A DNA stretch of 36,428 nt from Bacteroidota bacterium (lineage in GTDB: Bacteria; Bacteroidota; Bacteroidia; Chitinophagales; Saprospiraceae). The stretch is from NCBI GenBank assembly GCA_008501835.1, contig QQUB01000450.1, forward strand, positions 1-36,428, given 5' to 3'. The notes beneath the pieces were generated by a model, which saw nothing but the letters and a program-made list of their open reading frames with translations, made no database searches and was not told where the DNA came from. Shown here in pieces: positions 10,607 through 28,622 of this stretch. The stretch's first letter is position 1, and each line of letters begins with the position of its first letter. A program made the position numbers and the translations under genes.

Positions 10607-12271
10607 ATGAAAACAGTTCTCTTTCCAAATAGAATTTTGAGCATTTTATTTGTATTACTCCCGGTTTTATTGATTGGACAGAATAGATTTTCCTGGGAAA
10701 ATGAATTTACCAAAATCGTGCATTATCCTATTATCGATTTCATTGAGTTAAATGGTTCTATATATGCTGTTTTTAAAAACAATTTTGGTTTTAGCGAAAT
10801 AACGGTTAACAACAGTGTCGTCATTAGAAAGATTGGAATGGATTTGGAAATTGAAAAGGAAGAAAAACAAAAATTGCACCATGGTAAGAAGCCAATGGGG
10901 ATCCAAAAGCTATTCAGTTATAACAATGATTTATTCATTTTAGGTAAGGTTGGCACAGGAAAACTGAAAGAACAATGGTTTGTGGTAATGGAAATGGATA
11001 CTTCCGAACTCACTCTAGGTAAAAAACGATTTGAATTTTTTACAGACAAAGATATTCCACAGTTTTTTTTCCCTGTTCAAGATGGTTCAACCGAAACCGG
11101 CAAAAATGATGGCTTTGTTTTTGTTTCGAAATTTATTGAAAGAGGAGATTCTATAGTTTCAATGGATATTTTTTATTTGGATGAAGCATTTGAAAATGAA
11201 AAAAAGTTTAATGTATCCTTGGATTTGAAGGGGCAGGAATTTGATATTAAGAAAGTATATTTTGATGGCGTAGATCAAATTTTTCTTTCAGGATATGAAA
11301 GGCCTAAAATAAGAAAGGCTAGTCTTTTTAGAACCTCTAATAAAATTTCTAATGGACATTTTTGGAGTATAAACATAAAGAGTGGAGAAGTAAACCATAC
11401 AGTATTACAATTAGATGACTTTGATCAAGGTGAAGAGAGAAAATATATAAGGGATTTTGATTTTATGGTTAAGGAGGGTTGGGTTTATATTTTTGGAATA
11501 TATTCTGAAACAGAATGGAAGCCAATGGAATATTCTCAGTCTGGGAAAGGACTATTCTTCCAAAAGATTTCACAGTTGGATCATAAAATCCAAAACTTTT
11601 TCTATCCCATTGAAGACGAAGTTATAAAAGATCATAATGAAACCAATGAAGAAAGAAAAGTGAGAAGAGAGATTCCTGATCTCGAAATAAACGATTTAAA
11701 GATCAATGAAATAGTTGAATTTGAGTCAAACGGGTTTTTAATATTTACAGAAGTCGGATATGAAAGAGTATCCAGTTCAGGGGGGCGTTATACCGGACCT
11801 AATTCTCGTTCGACACCAACTTCCGCGTATGAAAGCCATTATTCTGTTTCGAAAGATCTGATCGTTTTCCATTTAGATAAATCCGGGGAACAAATATGGC
11901 AAAGTCATATTGCAAAAAGGGATCAGAGTGAAGTCAACTATTTTCCTCCAGCAGGGTCATATTTCTACTTTATGGGAGAAAATCAAATCCAAGTATTTTT
12001 TATGGCGCCGGATTTTGCTTTCAAAAATTCAGAGTATTCTATAGCAAAAATTAAACCTATCAAATGGAATAGTTATTACAATATGGTTTTGTGCCAGGCA
12101 TCTATGAATTTACAAAATGGAAACACTGAATATAATATAATAAATACCACCTCGGGGACAAAGACTATGATACTTTCTCCTAAAGTGACTAAAAAAATAT
12201 CCTCCAACCGTTATATAGTTTTAGGTAGGATGAGAGCTAAAGCAAAATTTGGAATAATTGAAATAGAATGA
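10607..12271 (+). CDS. Hypothetical exported protein (AT-rich orphan gene)
   Basis: 554 aa with N-terminal signal-like MKTVLFPNRILSILFVLLPVLLIGQ. The long ORF lies in very AT-rich DNA. I recognise no motif. Confidence 0.6.
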   Translation: MKTVLFPNRILSILFVLLPVLLIGQNRFSWENEFTKIVHYPIIDFIELNGSIYAVFKNNFGFSEITVNNSVVIRKIGMDLEIEKEEKQKLHHGKKPMGIQKLFSYNNDLFILGKVGTGKLKEQWFVVMEMDTSELTLGKKRFEFFTDKDIPQFFFPVQDGSTETGKNDGFVFVSKFIERGDSIVSMDIFYLDEAFENEKKFNVSLDLKGQEFDIKKVYFDGVDQIFLSGYERPKIRKASLFRTSNKISNGHFWSINIKSGEVNHTVLQLDDFDQGEERKYIRDFDFMVKEGWVYIFGIYSETEWKPMEYSQSGKGLFFQKISQLDHKIQNFFYPIEDEVIKDHNETNEERKVRREIPDLEINDLKINEIVEFESNGFLIFTEVGYERVSSSGGRYTGPNSRSTPTSAYESHYSVSKDLIVFHLDKSGEQIWQSHIAKRDQSEVNYFPPAGSYFYFMGENQIQVFFMAPDFAFKNSEYSIAKIKPIKWNSYYNMVLCQASMNLQNGNTEYNIINTTSGTKTMILSPKVTKKISSNRYIVLGRMRAKAKFGIIEIE

Positions 12272-12448
12272 AAAAAAATCTTGTTTTTGTATTTTTCAAT
12301 AATGTATGACCATTTGATTGCTTATGGTTTGAACTTCCTATTGACCAATTCAAATTATTAATCTTCAATTCCTTTTTTACCCGGGAAAGCCGTACCTTAG
12401 TCCTCTTGAAAAAAAGCGTCATTTTGATGCTTAAACCAACTTAAAGTT

Positions 12449-20801: not shown

Positions 20802-21716
20802 ATGCATTTGGAAGAGCTTCTGAAGGAGCTTGATGCTGTGGAAGCAAAAGCCCGGGGTCTGAGATGGAGGCGCCTGGCTTTTGCACCAGCTCGTTACGCC
20901 TTCGCCTTGTTCTTCCGGTTTGTGGTTTATCCCATCAATAAGAAAGGAGTTGTCAGGAAATGTTTTACATTTTTTGGCAGTAAAATGGAGATCGTCCTGC
21001 CTGCTGATCTCGACGTATTCCTGTTAAAGGCCAAAACGCCTGATTCGGAAATTCGGTTGACCCGTTATCTCATTCAAAACCTGAAAGAGGGTGATATTTT
21101 TGTGGATGCAGGTGCACATCTTGGATTTTATTCCTTATTGGCTTCGAAACTCATTGGTCCGGCTAGAAAGGTTTACAGTATTGAAGCTTCCAAAGCGGTA
21201 TTTGGAGTGCTAAAACGCAATACTCAACCAAGTAAGAATATCAAAGTTTACAATCTTGCAGTCGGTTTGAAAGAGGATATCCTTGAATTTCATGAGTACC
21301 CGATTTTATATTCAGAGCACAATACCATCCGCCCTGACCGGTTTAATCAGTCCGACTGGATCAGGAAAAATCCTCCACTAAAGGTGAAGGTCGAGGCCAA
21401 CAGGCTTGATGCCATGCTGGAAGACTGGATGATTCATCCCGATTTTATCAAAATAGATATTGAAGGAGCTCAGTACGATGCTATTGCCGGGTTGAAGAGT
21501 TGTTTGGAGTTTTGTAAACCAGAAGTGGCTATGGCCTACCAGGCTCGCGGTCGAAGCAATCACGCGCATAATAAGGCGCTTGTTATTGCGAAAAAATATG
21601 GATACCTCCCGCATTTGATAGAACAGGACGGGACATTGACCCTTGCTGAAAACGTGGATACCGAATTATTGGAACGAGGGCTGGACACTGATTTTATTGT
21701 GTTGAAAAGAGGGTGA
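20802..21716 (+). CDS. FkbM family SAM-dependent methyltransferase
   Basis: 304 aa. FVDAGAHLGFYSL (SAM motif I), VYSIEASK, and IKIDIEGAQYDAIAGL (the FkbM-type K-I-D-x-E-G-x-E pattern). The ATG is 2 nt after the thrS stop. Confidence 0.8.
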   Translation: MHLEELLKELDAVEAKARGLRWRRLAFAPARYAFALFFRFVVYPINKKGVVRKCFTFFGSKMEIVLPADLDVFLLKAKTPDSEIRLTRYLIQNLKEGDIFVDAGAHLGFYSLLASKLIGPARKVYSIEASKAVFGVLKRNTQPSKNIKVYNLAVGLKEDILEFHEYPILYSEHNTIRPDRFNQSDWIRKNPPLKVKVEANRLDAMLEDWMIHPDFIKIDIEGAQYDAIAGLKSCLEFCKPEVAMAYQARGRSNHAHNKALVIAKKYGYLPHLIEQDGTLTLAENVDTELLERGLDTDFIVLKRG

Positions 21717-21952
21717 CTTTGAAAATTCAATTTTTCATATTTATCTTTTTAAATTTAGTTGTCTTTCTTTTGGAAATATAGTGCCTATAACGTATTTTGA
21801 AGCCAACCCATCTGACATTTTTTACAAAATCCATGACATTTAAATAAGAGGTCCCTCTACAAGAAGACTAAACAACTACTTGGTTAGGTCCTACCATTAT
21901 GGCTTAAAACTTGACCATGGAATAGTATAACTTCCAAAAAAGTATCATAGAA

Positions 21953-24900
21953 ATGTCTAGACCCAAGAAAAACTTCAAGAGGAAAACTATCTTGAATCCT
22001 AAAGAAAGAACCAATCAATTTCCTTCTGTAAATTTAACTAGAAACCTTTTGCAGAGACATGGTGCAAGGGTGAAAAGTATCTATTTGGAGTTAAAAAATT
22101 ATAGATTTTATCATAGCCCTTCAAATAGATTGAATCCTGATAAAAGGTTTGTTGGTAGGGGTGAAATGAAAAAAAAGTTAGAAAACCTTATCACAAAATC
22201 TCAAACGAATTCAGGGACCTATCTTGTTACCGGTTTTAGAGGGATGGGAAAAACAAGTTTGGTGAATAAAGTCCTTTCTGATTTATTGAACCAGCAGAAT
22301 GCATTATATGTTCTTAAAGTCGTTTTTAGCTACCTTGTTGTTGTTTGGTTGTCTTCTTTTTTTACCATCCAAGCAGTGTTCGTTTTTTCCCTATTAGGGG
22401 TATTAGCATTCATTTATATGCTGTCAAAAAAATCTGAAGTTTCTCAAAAAAGAAGACTTAAAACTCAGGTATTAGATATTTTAAAAATTTTCGTCAACCC
22501 ATTCGAAAACGAATTGGAAAATAGTGCAAAAAGAGTTTTTGCAACAGGTTTTTCTCGAATTGGTATTGTATTAATATTTTCAAGTTTGGCACTTTTCCTT
22601 ATTAATTATCAAAAATTTGTTGCGAAATACTCGGGAAAAATTGAAGGACAAATAATTTCATATTCTGAAAAAATCAAGGTATTTATAATTGCTCTTGGGG
22701 CATATTTTTTTATTGTGATAATCATCGAACTATTTAATTTTTTCAGATACCATAGAAAAAATAATAATGAATCCAATCCATTAAATCAGAATTCGAATAA
22801 AAGAGCAAGGGGATATTTTTTTGTGATGTTCTTTTTCCTAATGACAATACTTTCATTTGTTATTATTGTCAAAAATGGATCGCCAATTCCATCTTGGATA
22901 TATACACCTTCAATAATAATTTTTTTAATAATTCTCTTAATTTTAATTTTTGGGAATCATTCAAAAAAAATATTTCACTCCTTTGTAAATAATAGTAATA
23001 TTATTCCTGTATATATAAATCTCGGAAAGGAAAACCTTTCAGAGGAGGATATTTTAAAGCTTGTAACTTATGGTTTATATAATAGCTATAAGAGAATTGC
23101 TTTACCATTCAGTTATATTAAAAGAGGATTATGGTCGTTGGGTGTAGGAATAATGGTTTACTTAATTGGATCAACTTTTTATTTCTTTGAACCTACCTAT
23201 AAGTTATTTAATGATTGGAGAATGAGGAGTAATTTGGTTTATTACTTTCCTAGTCAAACCCATTTTCTTAAGGGCGTTAATTTATCAGATGAATTAGCTA
23301 TTAATGTTATTGATACATTAGACGATACAAGGTTCCCAGATTCAACATTTTTAGAAAATTATTACACTATTGTAGTTCAAAATAAGATGGAAATTGGACA
23401 GGGTTTTTCCATTCAAGATAATTTCCTTGCTTTTACTGTTACATTGGATTACTTTTTATTAAGTATTTACGTAAATACTATCCGACCATTTATTCGGGCA
23501 GGGTTGATAAAAAATGATTCAATTAATACAGGCCCTCTTTATATTTTATCTAATACTCTAGGGTTACATCCCAATTTTAGGTTTATTCCAAGATATGATT
23601 TTCTTTTTCTCATGTATATATTATTCTTTTCTTATTTTTCTAGATGGCTTTTGAGATCAAGAGTTTGGGGTGTAAGTCATCGTGCCATTCTCAAAAAATT
23701 GAAAAACCTTGTAGATAGTCTTGAGGCAGAAATTGATATTGGAAAGGGTAGAAATATGGCAATTAATTATCCTGAAAAACTTTTTTCACTTGGCTTTACT
23801 TCGAATAAAAAGAAGAGTTATCCAATAAAAAGCGCACCAGAAATAGAAATAACCCTTATTGAAATTTTGAGAGAAATCGAGTCAATCCCAAAGCTCAGAA
23901 TGCGACCAAGATTTGTATTCATTTTTGATGAATTGGATAAGATTCAACCTCGAGAACTAAATGACAAGGATAATAACAATAACCCAAAGGATTATTCAGA
24001 ATCAGAATGGACAAAGAAAAGGCAAGACACAATTGGTACTATTTTAGCAAACCTTAAGCACTTCTTTAATTCAGCTAAAGCGAAATTTATTTTTATTGCC
24101 GGTCGAGAAATGTATGATGCAGCCCTGGCAGATATTTCAGATAGAGATGCCTTAATTGGAAGCCTATTCCATGAAGTTATTTATGTTCATAGTTTTTATA
24201 AAGACCCTGCCGATGAGAGGTTATCGGACATAACCTCAATGACTGAACGTTATATTTGTCAATTTTTGATTCCAGAAGAAGAGTTGGATGATGATCCTAA
24301 TTTGAGTAAATATAATAGTTATCTTTTAAAAAATGTTAATAAGTTATTTGAGAAAGAACAAAATAAAGAATTAGCTATTGCTAAAATAATTATGTCTCTA
24401 CATAATTTTATTTCGTATGTCTCTTATAGGAGTAACGGGGCCCCAAAAAAAATCACCAAAATTTTTGAGGAATATATCAAAGGGTATCCAGATAAAAAAA
24501 CTGACTTTGCAAGTACTATAATTACCAGAAGAGATGAAAATAGTTTGTATTTACACTTTAGCTTTAATGATCAATATATTTTTAGTGTTGGAAGGTATTT
24601 ATTTAATCCTTTTGTTATTGCAGTAAATAAATATATTAAAGCTTTTGAAGACAAATTGTTGGTTTCAACATCTTTTCTATTAAATCATATTTATAAATTT
24701 CATAAAGTGGGTTTTTCTCATAAAACCTTAGAACTTACTCCTGAAATTATTGCAATTTATAAAGCTCCCGAACTTAGAGATTTTATAAATCGATTGATTA
24801 CCTTTTTAAGTCAGACCCACCTTCGAAAAATTTTAAGTGGCTTGTACGACTTTAAATTTTATAGTCGCATTGAAAAAGAAATAGCTTATATCTCTAAAAT

Positions 24901-27427
24901 CTCCGAATCAGAGTCTGCTGCTTTTAATTTCACCCTTGACGAATCCCTAATTATAAAAAGTATTTTTAGAAATAAACTAAACAAGGTTAGAAAGTACTGG
25001 GGTAGTGAAATTGAGACAAAGGTACATGTTGAATCTGTAGCATTTATTAATAATAATTTGGGAGATTTAAGTTTTAATGATGCTAAGTATTTTGAAGCTA
25101 TTCATTATTACAAAGAGGCTTTAGTTAAAATTGATAATACCCAGATTAAGGAATTATCACCTGATCTTTTCATTTTCTTGATTAGAACCGAGTTAAAATT
25201 GGGACTTGCCTACGAAATGATAAAAAATGCAGACGAAGCCTTGATGATTTATGATGATATTAGCAGAAAAGCTATTGATTATATTCGACAGCGACATATA
25301 AAATACAATAAGGAAAGTTGGACAAAGGATCTGAAAAAAACTGAATTAATTACAATTCTTAGGTTATTTTATCAGCCTTTACTGGCAAAAATGCAATTAA
25401 TTGAAAAAAGTACAATAAAAAGTTTGACGAAAACTCAGCTTAGAGAAAACCTAGTCTCGTTTAAGCATATTATTAATGATTACCTTTCTCCGGAGCAAAA
25501 TTTTTTACTTAGAGCGGAGTATTATGATAAAATTGGTGACCTGCTTTTTTATAAAAATGGCATTCCATTTGGTAAATTTGAGAAGGGTGAGGAGGCCGGA
25601 GAAACAGACCCAAGGTTTTTTAAAGACATTCAAGAAGGTAGGTTAAACCATGAATATTTTTATTCATTGCCAGTTGGTGCGTACTATAGATATATGGTCA
25701 GTCTGACTTCTTTAATACATGTCGGTATCTCTCAGCAGCTCGACGAAAATGTAAAGATTAATTATTTTGATATTACTAAGCCCCATGAGTCTGACTGGCT
25801 TATTATTCATTATTTCACGAGTTTTTTATTCAACAGAATTGGAAAGACTTTTCCCATATCAAGGAAATCCTTCTTCCTCGCAGCTGGAAATAGCTTATCT
25901 GATGCTGGAAATACAATTCTTTCAATTATTTCGGCCGAAATTAACACTAACCCTGTTGAATTAAATTTACTTGATGTGAAAAAGTTGAAAAGGGTTTTAA
26001 GTTTTAAGATGAAAGGAGAAGGTGGGGAGGAAGCTTTAACTTTTGCTGGAGAGAATCAAATTGCGACTCTCAAAGTGGAGACAGAGAATGAACAAGAAGG
26101 AGTTTTGCATTTAAGAGAGAAAGTTAATAAGTTCTATGGAAAATTTGACCTTTGTAGGTTACATACAGCTTTAAGGTATATATATATTGCAGCAATCTAT
26201 TTTGAAAGGGCCGGAGATTATAAAGGTTTTGTGTTTCAATTATCCAAGATTTTACACGTTTTGAGGCTTATTGTTCTAAAGGTTGTTCAAAATGAAGGTG
26301 GAGCAGAACAAGTTCAAGCTCAAGCTTTTTTAGATTTTTTGAATGAGTATGTTGTCTATAAAGCTATAAGGTATAATTATAAGGCATATAAGAATTATGA
26401 CCATTCAGAAGCACAGCAATTGAAAAATTCTTTAGGTTTTGTTAACTACGAAGGTAACCAAAAAATGGAATTAGAAAAGGTTATTAAAGCTTCCACTTCA
26501 GCGGCAGAGGATATAAAGGAAATATTATTAATATACGCTGATATAAAACTCAAGTTATTTCCTGAAGAATATTTAGAATTAGAGGATGGCTTAATAAATC
26601 CATATACCAATGTAAGCTTGAGAGGAAATCGGTTGTCGGAATTGAATTATAAGAGTCATTTTAACTACAAATACCTTAAGAAATTAACTTCAGGGATTAA
26701 ACCGAATTCGAACAGAGAAAAAAGATCGGAAAGTATAATTGCACTAAAACCAATTATTAACCGATACGAGGCAAAAGAAATTATTGATAGAATTTTAGAT
26801 GGTTTTTCAAATGGTAGATTTAAAGATTTAGAAAAATTGGAGTTTATTATTTTAGATTCTATTTTCATTTTGTATGAAATGAGGCTAACTATTGAAATAT
26901 TCGGTCAATCTTATATTCATAATCATAGTTGGTATGCTTCCATTTATAGAAGGTTAGGGTTTTGGAGCATGCTATTTCATGAATATGTGGCTGGGGTTAA
27001 ATCTAGGGAAAACAAGGACTCTAAAGAGGAGAAGGATAATCGTAATAAACCTATTATTCCTAAGGTTTTTCCAAAGGGAAGGTCTCAAGTCGTGGAGGAA
27101 TTGTTAAAGAAATTAATTGGTCAGGAAGAGTTTACAGATTTAGATTCTATCTCCTTTTACGAAAAAGCTCTTAAACACTGTTATAGTATTTATGAAACTC
27201 ATTCGGAGGGACAAGCGTATCAGGATTTTATTCAGGAAATGAACTACCTGGATGATGATTTTAATGATAATTTATATCACTTCTCAGCAACCTTAGAGCG
27301 GATGCGAATAAATTTTGATATGGTAAAAAATCATATCGATGATCTTAGTGAGGTGATAAAACTAAATAAAAAAAGATTTTATTTTGAGTCCTTTTTCACA
27401 CATTTGGAAAAAACTGTAATAAATTAA
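21953..27427 (+). CDS. Giant membrane-embedded STAND/KAP-like P-loop NTPase with a TPR-like helical C-terminus (no assignable named family)
   Basis: An uninterrupted 5,475-nt ORF in roughly 30% GC DNA. In order: FVGRGEMKKKLENLI lead-in, Walker A LVTGFRGMGKTS, about 6 hydrophobic helices, strand-like IIPVYINL, about 3-4 more hydrophobic helices, Walker B FVFIFDELD, sensor-1-like FIFIAGRE, GxP-like SNGAPKKITKIF, and TPR-like NNLGDLSFNDAKYFEAIHYYKEALV. Confidence 0.8.
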   Translation: MSRPKKNFKRKTILNPKERTNQFPSVNLTRNLLQRHGARVKSIYLELKNYRFYHSPSNRLNPDKRFVGRGEMKKKLENLITKSQTNSGTYLVTGFRGMGKTSLVNKVLSDLLNQQNALYVLKVVFSYLVVVWLSSFFTIQAVFVFSLLGVLAFIYMLSKKSEVSQKRRLKTQVLDILKIFVNPFENELENSAKRVFATGFSRIGIVLIFSSLALFLINYQKFVAKYSGKIEGQIISYSEKIKVFIIALGAYFFIVIIIELFNFFRYHRKNNNESNPLNQNSNKRARGYFFVMFFFLMTILSFVIIVKNGSPIPSWIYTPSIIIFLIILLILIFGNHSKKIFHSFVNNSNIIPVYINLGKENLSEEDILKLVTYGLYNSYKRIALPFSYIKRGLWSLGVGIMVYLIGSTFYFFEPTYKLFNDWRMRSNLVYYFPSQTHFLKGVNLSDELAINVIDTLDDTRFPDSTFLENYYTIVVQNKMEIGQGFSIQDNFLAFTVTLDYFLLSIYVNTIRPFIRAGLIKNDSINTGPLYILSNTLGLHPNFRFIPRYDFLFLMYILFFSYFSRWLLRSRVWGVSHRAILKKLKNLVDSLEAEIDIGKGRNMAINYPEKLFSLGFTSNKKKSYPIKSAPEIEITLIEILREIESIPKLRMRPRFVFIFDELDKIQPRELNDKDNNNNPKDYSESEWTKKRQDTIGTILANLKHFFNSAKAKFIFIAGREMYDAALADISDRDALIGSLFHEVIYVHSFYKDPADERLSDITSMTERYICQFLIPEEELDDDPNLSKYNSYLLKNVNKLFEKEQNKELAIAKIIMSLHNFISYVSYRSNGAPKKITKIFEEYIKGYPDKKTDFASTIITRRDENSLYLHFSFNDQYIFSVGRYLFNPFVIAVNKYIKAFEDKLLVSTSFLLNHIYKFHKVGFSHKTLELTPEIIAIYKAPELRDFINRLITFLSQTHLRKILSGLYDFKFYSRIEKEIAYISKISESESAAFNFTLDESLIIKSIFRNKLNKVRKYWGSEIETKVHVESVAFINNNLGDLSFNDAKYFEAIHYYKEALVKIDNTQIKELSPDLFIFLIRTELKLGLAYEMIKNADEALMIYDDISRKAIDYIRQRHIKYNKESWTKDLKKTELITILRLFYQPLLAKMQLIEKSTIKSLTKTQLRENLVSFKHIINDYLSPEQNFLLRAEYYDKIGDLLFYKNGIPFGKFEKGEEAGETDPRFFKDIQEGRLNHEYFYSLPVGAYYRYMVSLTSLIHVGISQQLDENVKINYFDITKPHESDWLIIHYFTSFLFNRIGKTFPISRKSFFLAAGNSLSDAGNTILSIISAEINTNPVELNLLDVKKLKRVLSFKMKGEGGEEALTFAGENQIATLKVETENEQEGVLHLREKVNKFYGKFDLCRLHTALRYIYIAAIYFERAGDYKGFVFQLSKILHVLRLIVLKVVQNEGGAEQVQAQAFLDFLNEYVVYKAIRYNYKAYKNYDHSEAQQLKNSLGFVNYEGNQKMELEKVIKASTSAAEDIKEILLIYADIKLKLFPEEYLELEDGLINPYTNVSLRGNRLSELNYKSHFNYKYLKKLTSGIKPNSNREKRSESIIALKPIINRYEAKEIIDRILDGFSNGRFKDLEKLEFIILDSIFILYEMRLTIEIFGQSYIHNHSWYASIYRRLGFWSMLFHEYVAGVKSRENKDSKEEKDNRNKPIIPKVFPKGRSQVVEELLKKLIGQEEFTDLDSISFYEKALKHCYSIYETHSEGQAYQDFIQEMNYLDDDFNDNLYHFSATLERMRINFDMVKNHIDDLSEVIKLNKKRFYFESFFTHLEKTVIN
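22232..22258 (+). other. Walker A (P-loop) coding segment GFRGMGKTS, aa 94-102 of the giant ORF
   Basis: ggt ttt aga ggg atg gga aaa aca agt. It is preceded by the hydrophobic strand TYLVT and the FVGRG lead-in. Confidence 0.75.
22301..22954 (+). other. First membrane insert of the giant ORF: six hydrophobic 17-24-aa segments (aa ~117-334)
   Basis: ALYVLKVVFSYLVVVWLSSFF, AVFVFSLLGVLAFIYML, VFATGFSRIGIVLIFSSLALFLINY, IKVFIIALGAYFFIVIIIELFNFF, GYFFVMFFFLMTILSFVIIV, WIYTPSIIIFLIILLILIFG. These were called by eye, with no TM predictor run. Confidence 0.65.
23129..23653 (+). other. Second membrane insert of the giant ORF: three clear hydrophobic segments plus one weak one (aa ~393-567)
   Basis: GLWSLGVGIMVYLIGSTFYFF, NFLAFTVTLDYFLLSIYVNTI and YDFLFLMYILFFSYFSRWLL are clear. 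GPLYILSNTLGL is weaker. Confidence 0.55.
23909..23938 (+). other. Walker B coding segment RFVFIFDELD, aa 653-662 of the giant ORF
   Basis: A hydrophobic strand followed by D659-E660. About 50 aa later comes AKFIFIAGRE, a sensor-1-like hhhhxGR. Confidence 0.65.
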
Positions 27428-27609
27428 TTGTTATTGTAAAGAGAAATTATATTATGTTTTGCAAGATGGTCATACTTTGCTCTGTAGTTTATACTATTCT
27501 TTTAGAAACTTAATTATGATTTAGTATTTGACCAGATTCAATTGGAGTTGTGTTTTATGTAAAATTCGAAACACGAAAAAGTTTTAGTAGTGATTTTGAA
27601 TAGATAACC

Positions 27610-28176
27610 TTACCTACCCTTTGTCCAGGTCAAAAATTTATAAGACGTTTTGGAACTATGATCTGAACCCGGATCTTCAAAAGTATAGGTAAAGTCAACC
27701 TCTTCTTTTAAATTTACATCGTTCTCAGCAACAGCACTTTTCAAAATAGAGACCTTTTTGCCTGTATCCTGGATACAAATGCAAAGTACAGCACCTGGTC
27801 GCAAGTCATGAATAATTTTTCTGATGAAAGTAACTTCTTTTACCTTATCCTTTTTGGTAAAGTGAAACATGGAGTCCAATAAAATATAATCGTATTGATC
27901 AATTATTTCAAGGGTGTAAATGTCGTGACAAATGCCTTGTACGTTGAGTTCTTCCTGTGCCGCTTTTCCCAACATCTGTTCAATCCCCACTTCAGAAATA
28001 TCAACTCCTGTAACTTCAAAACCTAACCGTGCAACGGGTATTGCGTTTCTTCCCTGGCCGCAGCCGAGGTCGAGAACTTTGCCTTGTTTCTTTTCTTTTT
28101 CAAAAAATTCTAATAAAGCTGGAAATGCAGCCCCAAACAGATCAGGCGTTTCGTAATATTTATCGTAGCTCGCCAT
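27610..28176 (-). CDS. Class I SAM-dependent methyltransferase (TehB/TPMT-like)
   Basis: 188 aa with motif I VLDLGCGQGRNAI, then GFEVTGVDIS and a post-I acidic residue. Confidence 0.75.
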   Translation of the reverse strand: MASYDKYYETPDLFGAAFPALLEFFEKEKKQGKVLDLGCGQGRNAIPVARLGFEVTGVDISEVGIEQMLGKAAQEELNVQGICHDIYTLEIIDQYDYILLDSMFHFTKKDKVKEVTFIRKIIHDLRPGAVLCICIQDTGKKVSILKSAVAENDVNLKEEVDFTYTFEDPGSDHSSKTSYKFLTWTKGR

Positions 28177-28217: not shown

Positions 28218-28622
28218 TTATCCAAAGTTGAAGGAGTTGATCCTGTTTTTTACTATCCAAATAACGAACCAAATTGAAATAGCATAACCAAATATTGGCG
28301 GAATTACCAATTCGGCAGGGAAGGGAGGTCCTGTCCAGAGTAAGAGTATATAAACCAAAACACCTCCAAAAATATATATCCCGCAACACATTGTGCCCAG
28401 GGGAATTCCCCACTTGTTCTTTTTCCACAAAGCAAAGCCTGCCAGTAGAGATAACGGGCCTGCTACAATCAAGTCTCCATAGGGGATCAATACTTTTGAT
28501 AAATCTGTTTGGTCAAAGAGCACTCCTTCGCCCCAGGTATATAAAGCCCCTACAATGGCAAAGATCCCGGTAGAAAAGAACAGGAAGGAAAAGATTTTGA
28601 TTTGAGTATTGTTGAGCGCCAT
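28218..28622 (-). CDS. Small hypothetical membrane protein (about 4 TM)
   Basis: 134 aa with four hydrophobic stretches (IFSFLFFSTGIFAIVGALY, LIVAGPLSLLAGFALW, CCGIYIFGGVLVYILLLW, PPIFGYAISIWFVIWIV). I recognise no motif. Confidence 0.55.
   Translation of the reverse strand: MALNNTQIKIFSFLFFSTGIFAIVGALYTWGEGVLFDQTDLSKVLIPYGDLIVAGPLSLLAGFALWKKNKWGIPLGTMCCGIYIFGGVLVYILLLWTGPPFPAELVIPPIFGYAISIWFVIWIVKNRINSFNFG

Follow-up and report, generated by a model that had tools for sequence, protein, structure and literature searches.

P-loop nucleoside triphosphatases (NTPases) of the KAP family, reportedly delineated by Aravind et al. in 2004 around members such as Kidins220/ARMS and PifA, carry membrane helices at a canonical insert position. 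KAP proteins also have non-immune roles, as is the case for Kidins220. Here we analyse a giant open reading frame (ORF) of 1,824 codons, which lies in a stretch of DNA of 36,428 nucleotides (hereafter the window; contig QQUB01000450.1 of GenBank assembly GCA_008501835.1, from a member of the Saprospiraceae), and whose product combines a P-loop NTPase interrupted by predicted membrane helices with a long helical C-terminal region. This ORF had previously been picked out from the sequence alone as a candidate undescribed defence or sensor system (hereafter the original prediction).

It is only recently that membrane-embedded P-loop NTPases have emerged as phage-defence proteins (Tmn in 2023-2026 and the KAP fusions in 2026), and the examples tested all come from Pseudomonadota or Bacillota. 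In Tmn, two helices lie in the P-loop domain and a solenoid arm binds the phage protein RIIB (PMC13001434); the protein forms a decamer, exports Mg2+, causes plasmolysis and has no conserved operon (PMC13001434; bioRxiv 10.1101/2022.08.21.504612). Four KAP NTPases whose C-terminal regions are of unknown kind, EF_KAP and three from metagenomes, are likewise anti-phage proteins, and need both their Walker B and their C-terminal region (PMC13552941, PLoS Biol 2026). The family to which the window protein belongs is centred on the Bacteroidota, and adds approximately 1,000 clusters from a phylum whose defence systems are poorly charted, while being missed by current defence models (as judged on 21 members).

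A P-loop core in three segments, parted by two membrane inserts

The P-loop core of the window protein is built from three segments (aa ~60-116, 346-391 and 628-760), which are parted by two membrane inserts (Table 1). In an alignment of 21 sequences (the window protein and 20 homologues, with 20-70% identity), on which all statements of invariance are based, 41 residues are invariant and every catalytic motif is among them. In the first segment, the lead-in FVGRGEM (aa 66-72, with G68 and R69 invariant) is followed by the Walker A motif GFRGMGKTS, of which G97, M98, G99 and K100 are invariant, and the Walker A region aligns to positions 1-64 of the AAA_16 model (Pfam). The second segment contains the conserved stretch IIPVYINLGKE (aa 350-356), and the third contains the Walker B motif FIFDELDK, placed 559 aa after Walker A and with D659, E660, L661, D662 and K663 invariant. 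Further along this last segment, which also gives a weak Pfam match to AAA (aa 649-715), R690, K702, G717 and R731 are invariant, and at least 90% of sequences have the sensor-1-like R718 (in AGRE). Given that the catalytic motifs are intact and invariant, including the DE pair of Walker B, the core is predicted to be hydrolysis-competent.

The same three-part arrangement is found in the AlphaFold2 (AF2) model of aa 1-1020 (predicted local distance difference test score, pLDDT, of 67.9 and predicted TM score, pTM, of 0.64), where five confident core strands are contributed by the three separated segments: a strand at 88-93 with a helix at 100-112 (pLDDT 77-86), a strand at 350-356 with a helix at 364-383 (pLDDT 83-90), and strands at 653-659, 711-716 and 741-744 (pLDDT 83-89). 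A Foldseek search with this 1,020-aa N-terminal model returned weak matches (the best being RdrA, with E = 0.025), and the top matches are all AAA+/STAND-type ATPases, namely RdrA, TnsC, PAB2304, ClpX, Cdc6 and CED-4/Apaf-1. The core is followed by a family-specific module (aa ~680-1010) comprising a helical lid and a winged-helix-like part, which is the best-conserved portion of the protein (57-66% identity to the query in 40-aa windows) and in which Y825, G829, P831, D900, K915, H917, R942, N992, F993, D996 and E997 are invariant; its GxP-like motif reads YRSNGAPKK. The motifs named by the original prediction could thus all be located: the FVGR lead-in, the strand-2-like segment near aa 350, the sensor-1-like R718, the GxP-like motif and a gap of about 550 aa between Walker A and Walker B, together with K100 of Walker A and D659/E660 of Walker B; all of them lie at the positions it had given.

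The open frame of 1,824 codons is intact, as had been proposed, and its length is beyond chance, since about 8% of random codons are stops at ~30% GC. The gene caller's product (P0001) has 1,765 aa, starting from a TTG at codon 60 (L60), and drops aa 37-56. These residues are kept in the homologues, with the pattern G.R.K.I..EL.NY.F.HSP in the alignment, and, because they lie upstream of the TTG, the start codon to be preferred is the ATG at 21953.

In order to place the protein among known families, its profile matches were compared with the Pfam cut-offs (KAP_NTPase 20 bits, NACHT 26.7, NB-ARC 23.5 and nSTAND1 27.1). In an hmmscan search with the full 1,824-aa protein (E <= 1), AAA_16 matches the Walker A region near threshold (31.1 bits), and KAP_NTPase is not among the Pfam matches. 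After insert 1 is excised in silico, KAP_NTPase scores 25.5 bits, rising to 26.0 bits when both inserts are removed. The KAP relationship is therefore hidden by insert 1, since the match returns once the six-helix block is taken out, and insert 2 sits at an insertion-tolerant site of the KAP model, given that the score hardly depends on its presence. The match of the spliced core begins at Walker A and ends at Walker B, taking in positions 3-168 of the 293 in the model, and the C-terminal half of the KAP model (positions ~170-293) is unmatched, with all matches stopping at 166-171. Less elaborate homologues pass KAP_NTPase unmodified (P0060 with 32.7 bits, P0103 with 31.2 and P0052 with 21.3), and among 21 family members 19 match AAA_16 and four match KAP_NTPase.

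For the native protein, no PADLOC, NCBIfam or Pfam model is above threshold, and the 21 members are likewise without a defence-model match in PADLOC. With the full-length protein, NCBIfam gives only P-loop matches far below threshold, and PADLOC gives a single match (mad8) restricted to the P-loop. NACHT (13.6-17.9 bits), NB-ARC (16.5 bits) and nSTAND1 (12.8-16.4 bits) are all sub-threshold. No Avs model was matched in PADLOC by the window protein or the 21 members, and tmn is absent from the PADLOC 2.0.0 matches of the window protein (E <= 1) and of the 21 members (E <= 0.1; the presence of a tmn model being taken from the use of PADLOC by the Tmn authors). No YobI family appears in the Pfam/NCBIfam output, the presence of a YobI model in each library not having been separately confirmed. 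As judged from these profile matches, the protein is an elaborated branch of the KAP clade of P-loop NTPases, and one without an existing name. This agrees with the original prediction of a KAP-type NTPase with helices inside the P-loop domain, which had also named KAP (PF07693) among the matches to be expected once the inserts were masked. Its two other statements on affiliation have to be set aside: the layout is assignable to a described family, since this is a KAP branch of which simpler two-helix members exist, and an Avs-type STAND layout finds no NACHT, NB-ARC or Avs model above threshold.

Membrane helices were predicted from Kyte-Doolittle hydropathy (19-residue means), and their numbers across the family were obtained by placing Walker A, strand 2 and Walker B with small hidden Markov models in 169 members and tallying the hydropathy peaks between them. 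Insert 1 shows six strong peaks (aa 118-334, with means of 1.9-2.8), in line with the six helices originally proposed at aa ~117-334. It is the least conserved region of the protein (6-14% identity to the query in 40-aa windows), and its helix number across the 169 members is 0, 2, 4 or 6, going up to six or more, with even numbers dominant. Insert 2 shows three weaker peaks (393-411, 492-510 and 549-567, with values of 1.54, 1.45 and 1.38, respectively). The helix count must be even, because both NTPase halves must share one side of the membrane, and the commonest count for insert 2 in the family is two, with 24 of the 169 members carrying these two helices and no others. Our best reading of the hydropathy is therefore that the window protein has eight membrane helices, six in insert 1 and two around a loop of ~136 aa predicted to lie outside. 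Hydrophobic peaks do occur where three to four additional helices had been proposed (aa ~393-567), but these are best read as two helices, and the total comes down from nine or ten to eight.

The loop between the two conserved helices differs markedly within the family, with a median of 30 aa in members without insert-1 helices versus a median of 137 aa and a maximum of 367 aa in members with them. An xPSQ motif, which in the window protein reads YFPSQ, is found in 73 of the 131 members with insert-1 helices versus none of the 38 without. The loop charges fit the placement of the NTPase inside broadly, although not cleanly. A single family thus includes the simple KAP layout with two helices, a form with eight helices and a sizeable predicted outside domain, and the grades between them. 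This series of helix numbers lends itself to the question of whether the membrane part serves as anchor, sensor or effector.

The C-terminal region, of ~810 aa, is an α-solenoid of the TPR/HEAT-like type in the predicted structure. The AF2 model of the C-terminal 874 aa is all-helical (pLDDT 73.5 and pTM 0.79), and its Foldseek matches are solenoids only (Ctr9, transportin/CRM1, Naa15, Ski3-type TPRs and separase). On the profile side, there is a sub-threshold Pfam match to TPR_2 (aa 1031-1057, E = 0.054), and a PDB profile search gives weak matches to the TPRs of APC7 and HOP. The TPR-like helical-repeat tail of the original prediction is thus borne out, as is its lack of a recognisable enzymatic effector, given that Pfam, NCBIfam, PADLOC, PDB profile search and Foldseek found no enzymatic domain (nuclease, protease, TIR and similar).

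For the end of a solenoid, the last portion of the protein shows unusually high conservation. This portion (aa ~1721-1800, nt 27113-27352) holds YLDDDFNDNLYHF, within the pattern E.H.EG.AY ... YLDDDFNDNLYHF.A..ER, and at least 90% of sequences share H1750, G1753, D1768, D1772, H1776 and R1783. No profile match was obtained for aa 1721-1800, which could form an autoinhibitory cap or a metal/ligand site. A HEPN-like reading of its H-x6-R was considered and rejected, since the order is reversed with respect to Rx4-6H and profile support is absent. Two relatives carry additional C-terminal matter: P0022 (2,113 aa, locus L060, Candidatus Magnetobacterium casense) has a ~330-aa extension matching the alpha-amylase C-terminal beta-sheet domain (PF07821, E = 3e-8), and P0012 (2,285 aa) has a precomputed match to DAO (PF01266). 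These extra domains could be fused effectors or gene-calling fusions.

Table 1. Features of the giant gene and its surroundings (window positions, unless a locus is named).
Feature	Position	Strand	Basis or remark
Giant ORF, 1,824 aa	21953-27427	+	Uninterrupted; ATG start
Conserved N-terminal stretch (aa 37-56); FVGR (aa 66-69); first core strand; Walker A (GFRGMGKTS, K100) and its helix	22061-22288	+	Alignment, AAA_16 match, AF2
Insert 1 (aa ~117-335), after the Walker A helix and before strand 2: six predicted membrane helices	22301-22957	+	Hydropathy
Strand 2 and next helix of NTPase core (IIPVYINLGKENLSEEDILKL..., aa 346-391)	22988-23125	+	Conserved in 21/21 aligned sequences; AF2
Insert 2: predicted helix 7 (aa ~392-412), ~136-aa loop (aa 413-548) with YFPSQ (aa 432-436), predicted helix 8 (aa ~549-567)	23126-23653	+	Hydropathy, family counts
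Second half of NTPase core: Walker B, R690/K702 helix, strand 4 (G717/R718), R731, strand 5	23834-24232	+	Invariant residues, AF2
Helical lid with YRSNGxPKK (G829, P831) and winged-helix-like module (aa ~865-1010)	24233-24982	+	Conservation
α-Solenoid (TPR/HEAT-like), ~810 aa, proposed sensor/scaffold arm	24983-27424	+	AF2, Foldseek
AT-rich insertion of 5.9 kb (5,915 bp), with giant gene and its own flanks only	21710-27624		blastn against L087
FkbM-type methyltransferase gene	20802-21716		Ends at 21716
TehB-type methyltransferase gene	27610-28176	-	
133-aa ORF	28218-28622		
UvrA-like paralogue in three other loci	L003:15639-18419, L023:6296-9121, L035:15751-18534		

A foreign gene acquired as single-gene cargo

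The comparison with syntenic relatives shows that the giant gene is accessory and foreign, and that it was acquired horizontally as single-gene cargo. The ThrS protein, whose gene lies upstream, has 91% identity to that of a named Saprospiraceae metagenome-assembled genome and so places the window in this family. In the closest of the relatives compared, L087 (with a 99% identical ThrS and 83-88% identical DNA), blastn homology to the window runs up to 21709 and picks up again at 27625, and the two methyltransferase genes (FkbM-type and TehB-type) stand tail to tail, 25 bp apart; in the window, the insertion sits between the stop codons of these two convergent genes. L086 and L088, with ThrS proteins 98% and 91% identical, are also without the giant gene at the same syntenic site. 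The GC content of the insertion is 0.29-0.32 versus 0.40-0.46 in its flanks, and GC content at third codon positions (GC3) is 0.258 in the giant gene versus 0.455 in its neighbours in the window. At the insertion we found no tRNA gene, Rfam match, extra ORF or flanking direct or inverted repeats, and a scan for sigma-70 promoters and terminators gave results at background level. This clean single-gene insertion, together with the empty sites in relatives, amounts to a ready-made cassette with native flanks.

The spot at which the gene inserted is one that was already turning over, as the region downstream of thrS varies among the relatives: L087 has the FkbM-type gene, the TehB-type gene and the 133-aa ORF, L086 is without the TehB-type gene (of whose 3' end it retains a 132-bp remnant) and the 133-aa ORF, and L088 and L089 are also without the FkbM-type gene. 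Elsewhere in the window, a second AT-rich ORF (10607-12271, forward strand) encodes 554 aa with a signal-peptide-like N-terminus and no Pfam match (GC 0.323, GC3 0.281). It may be another accessory insertion, given that the blastn alignment to L086 starts only at window position 12355.

The low GC content is a property of the whole family. In the 65 loci with enough flanking sequence for a comparison, the GC content of the family gene is below that of its neighbours without exception (by a median of 7.2 points and a maximum of 27, with extremes of 36% versus 63% and 30% versus 53%), and GC3 is lower than in the neighbours in 86% of loci. With aa 630-1020 as the query, phmmer found 1,001 proteins (clusters at 50% identity) among 1.84 billion representatives, 703 of them at E <= 1e-30; among the 150 matches listed, lengths go from 600 to 2,419 aa and are mostly 1,200-2,400 aa. 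With one genome per species, relatives are present in 218 of 185,579 species (~0.1%), and in this search two copies were seen in one genome. Most carriers are Bacteroidota (Saprospiraceae, Flavobacteriaceae, Cytophagales, Chitinophagales and Bacteroidales), the others belonging to the Nitrospirota (several Candidatus Magneto- genera), Ignavibacteria/Kapaibacterium, Calditrichia, Cloacimonadaceae and Acidobacteriota/Aminicenantia.

Across 80 related loci, neither a neighbour of at least 90 aa nor a small ORF of 30-200 aa (looked for up to 700 nt away) is conserved, and the gene is thus stand-alone, as originally described. Two Ekhidna assemblies have it at different loci. In two Ekhidna loci, the giant gene starts where a small ORF without a Pfam match stops, or a few bases from that point (L001:9429-10001, 190 aa, and L002:9580-9996, 138 aa), an equivalent of which is not conserved elsewhere in the family and is absent from the window. 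In seven of 81 loci (L007, L018, L025, L028, L047, L081 and L085) the frame is split into two adjacent ORFs, which are either pseudogenes or assembly errors in metagenome-assembled genomes. Other huge ORFs (1,700-3,000 aa) occur in the flanks of four loci (L041:34-9039, L010:9-5672, L025:5-6046 and L071:2038-7131); the possibility that these are tandem paralogues was discarded, as they have no BLASTP similarity to the family.

Among the 129 proteins encoded within two genes either side of the family gene (~40 loci), only two match models for type I methyltransferases, and one of these two belongs to a type I restriction-modification system that adjoins the gene in L004; apart from this system, the Pfam and PADLOC matches are generic. 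In Gaetbulibacter, Winogradskyella and Hyunsoonleella, a UvrA-like paralogue (~926 aa, matching mad3 and mad8 of PADLOC) lies beside the gene, and this shared neighbour reflects either inherited synteny or a functional link.

Possible functions of the protein

With slightly better than even confidence, we read the window protein as a self-contained membrane-integrated signalling NTPase, which would work on its own as a sensor in the conflict with phages or mobile DNA. A role in defence is suggested by the precedents of Tmn (PMC13001434), the KAP NTPases (PMC13552941) and PifA, and the case is strengthened by the accessory and foreign character of the gene. In the mechanism that we propose, the cytosolic solenoid (and possibly the outside loop too) would bind a trigger derived from a phage or a mobile element, and this binding would release a STAND-like nucleotide switch, leading to oligomerisation. 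The clustered membrane helices would then be the effector, acting by ion leak, ion export or membrane perturbation, so that either the infected cell or the invader would be arrested.

A more daring version concerns the elaborated subtype, with its 2-6 extra helices and its outside loop of 130-370 aa with YFPSQ. This might be a new class of envelope-coupled immune receptor, in which the loop would sense phage adsorption, injection or another envelope event, the cytosolic KAP/STAND-like switch would turn this signal into oligomerisation, and the multi-helix module would become an NTP-gated pore. We regard this proposal as doubtful, but, if true, it would make the protein a one-protein transmembrane outside-in immune sensor, unlike Tmn, where a phage protein is sensed in the cytosol.

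Several observations weigh against a role in defence. Judging from the alignment, the solenoid is moderately conserved and not hypervariable; the insertion has no integrase, tRNA gene or target-site duplication; and searches of 72,556 plasmids, 50,697 phage genomes and 2.9 million viral contigs gave no copy of the gene. The commonest families among the 129 neighbouring proteins are response regulators, extracytoplasmic function (ECF) sigma factors, proteins with type IX secretion system (T9SS) sorting tails and UvrA-like proteins, and Pfam and PADLOC give no defence-island signal in this set, which, being without a matched control, is an absence of support rather than a refutation; the association with defence islands that the original prediction had led us to expect is thus not seen within two genes either side. 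Moreover, the UvrA-like neighbour shared by three Flavobacteriaceae genera suggests some vertical inheritance, the low GC content could partly stem from a composition rich in K, N, I, F and Y (though GC3 is also lower in 86% of loci), and the Foldseek similarity of the predicted model to ATPases is weak (E >= 0.025), the likely reason being that the membrane inserts spoil the alignment.

Part of this evidence would suit a non-immune membrane scaffold or signalling NTPase, that is, an accessory physiological gene whose solenoid would organise, in dependence on NTP, complexes for envelope functions, secretion, gliding or cell-cell signalling, a role proposed in general terms for KAP proteins and exemplified by Kidins220 in animals. 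Housekeeping and regulatory neighbours (including response regulators, ECF sigma factors, T9SS-sorted and UvrA-like proteins), no defence-island enrichment, no plasmid, phage or viral copy, the same neighbour kept in three flavobacterial genera and a solenoid and C-terminal end that are moderately to well conserved are all consistent with such a role, and the conserved predicted outside loop with YFPSQ would suit envelope sensing. We nevertheless consider it rather unlikely, though deserving of attention, given that the family is rare and patchy (~0.1% of species, in six phyla), that the gene is absent from the same site in syntenic relatives and compositionally foreign in 65 of 65 loci, that 7 of 81 loci have a split frame, and that no conserved partner genes point to a pathway. 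An NTP-driven transporter or gated channel for an ordinary physiological substrate, with the eight helices as the permeation path and the NTPase and solenoid as regulators, would account for the tight fusion of eight predicted helices to a P-loop domain predicted to be hydrolysis-competent, and Tmn shows that such proteins can move Mg2+ (PMC13001434). A specific substrate path, however, fits poorly with insert-1 helices whose sequence is less conserved than any other part of the protein and whose number goes from 0 to 6 or more; no transporter family is found in Pfam/NCBIfam or among the Foldseek matches, and an AT-rich gene that varies between strains in every host is not what would be expected of a specialised physiological transporter, which makes this reading very unlikely. 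Finally, the strongly foreign composition and the split frames in some relatives could be taken to indicate a non-working gene, be it foreign DNA in decay or an artefact of annotation, but this has a negligible probability in view of 1,824 open codons in 30%-GC DNA, of 41 invariant residues including all catalytic motifs, and of the long conserved core that ~1,000 representative clusters have in common.

Comparison with described systems

The membrane-integrated sensor NTPase that we favour can be set against four described groups. With the KAP family (PF07693) the window protein shares a P-loop NTPase that is predicted to be cytoplasmic and has helices between Walker A and Walker B, the fusion to large helical-repeat regions and a sporadic occurrence in prokaryotes. 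It differs in the six additional predicted helices that occupy a second insertion site, located after the Walker A helix and before strand 2, in the enlargement of the canonical hairpin to a loop of ~136 aa, predicted to lie outside, and in a family-specific lid/winged-helix-like module in place of the C-terminal half of KAP. As for PifA, it is far smaller than the 1,824 aa of the window protein.

EF_KAP and its companions combine, as the window protein does, a KAP NTPase with membrane helices and a large C-terminal region devoid of known domains, and have been validated as stand-alone anti-phage proteins. By their description, they are much smaller (the C-terminal region of EF_KAP having 322 aa), have two helices and come from Bacillota, and they adjoin small serine recombinases, none of which is present at the window locus. 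The Avs and other STAND proteins have in common with it the AAA_16-type FVGR lead-in, the sensor-1 arginine, the GxP-like lid, the winged-helix-like module and a helical-repeat sensor, and also the presumed logic, going from sensor to nucleotide switch to oligomerisation; the sensor-1 arginine and the GxP-like motif, although common to STAND proteins, are not diagnostic alone. The window protein is different in that it has no N-terminal effector domain and in that its NTPase is split by membrane inserts.

It is with Tmn that the likeness goes furthest. Both are encoded by single genes with no conserved operon, both have helices within the P-loop domain and no separate enzymatic effector, and both end in a long C-terminal α-solenoid without clear sequence repeats, whose length varies among members; in both families, two copies per genome occur occasionally. 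The differences lie in sequence, given that no profile relationship between the two was detected, in size and helix number (two helices and ~1,270 aa in Tmn, versus a predicted eight helices and 1,824 aa) and in distribution, since Tmn is common on F-type plasmids of Enterobacteriaceae, whereas the window family is chromosomal, mainly from Bacteroidota, and has no copy in the plasmid collection. On this comparison, Tmn offers the best working model for how the window protein might act. Of the undescribed system put forward in the original prediction, one part stands, in that no curated model covers the native protein, and the other does not, as a membrane part serving as effector is already established for Tmn (PMC13001434). 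Defence by membrane-embedded NTPases is thus an established idea, and what is new is this large, eight-helix branch centred on the Bacteroidota.

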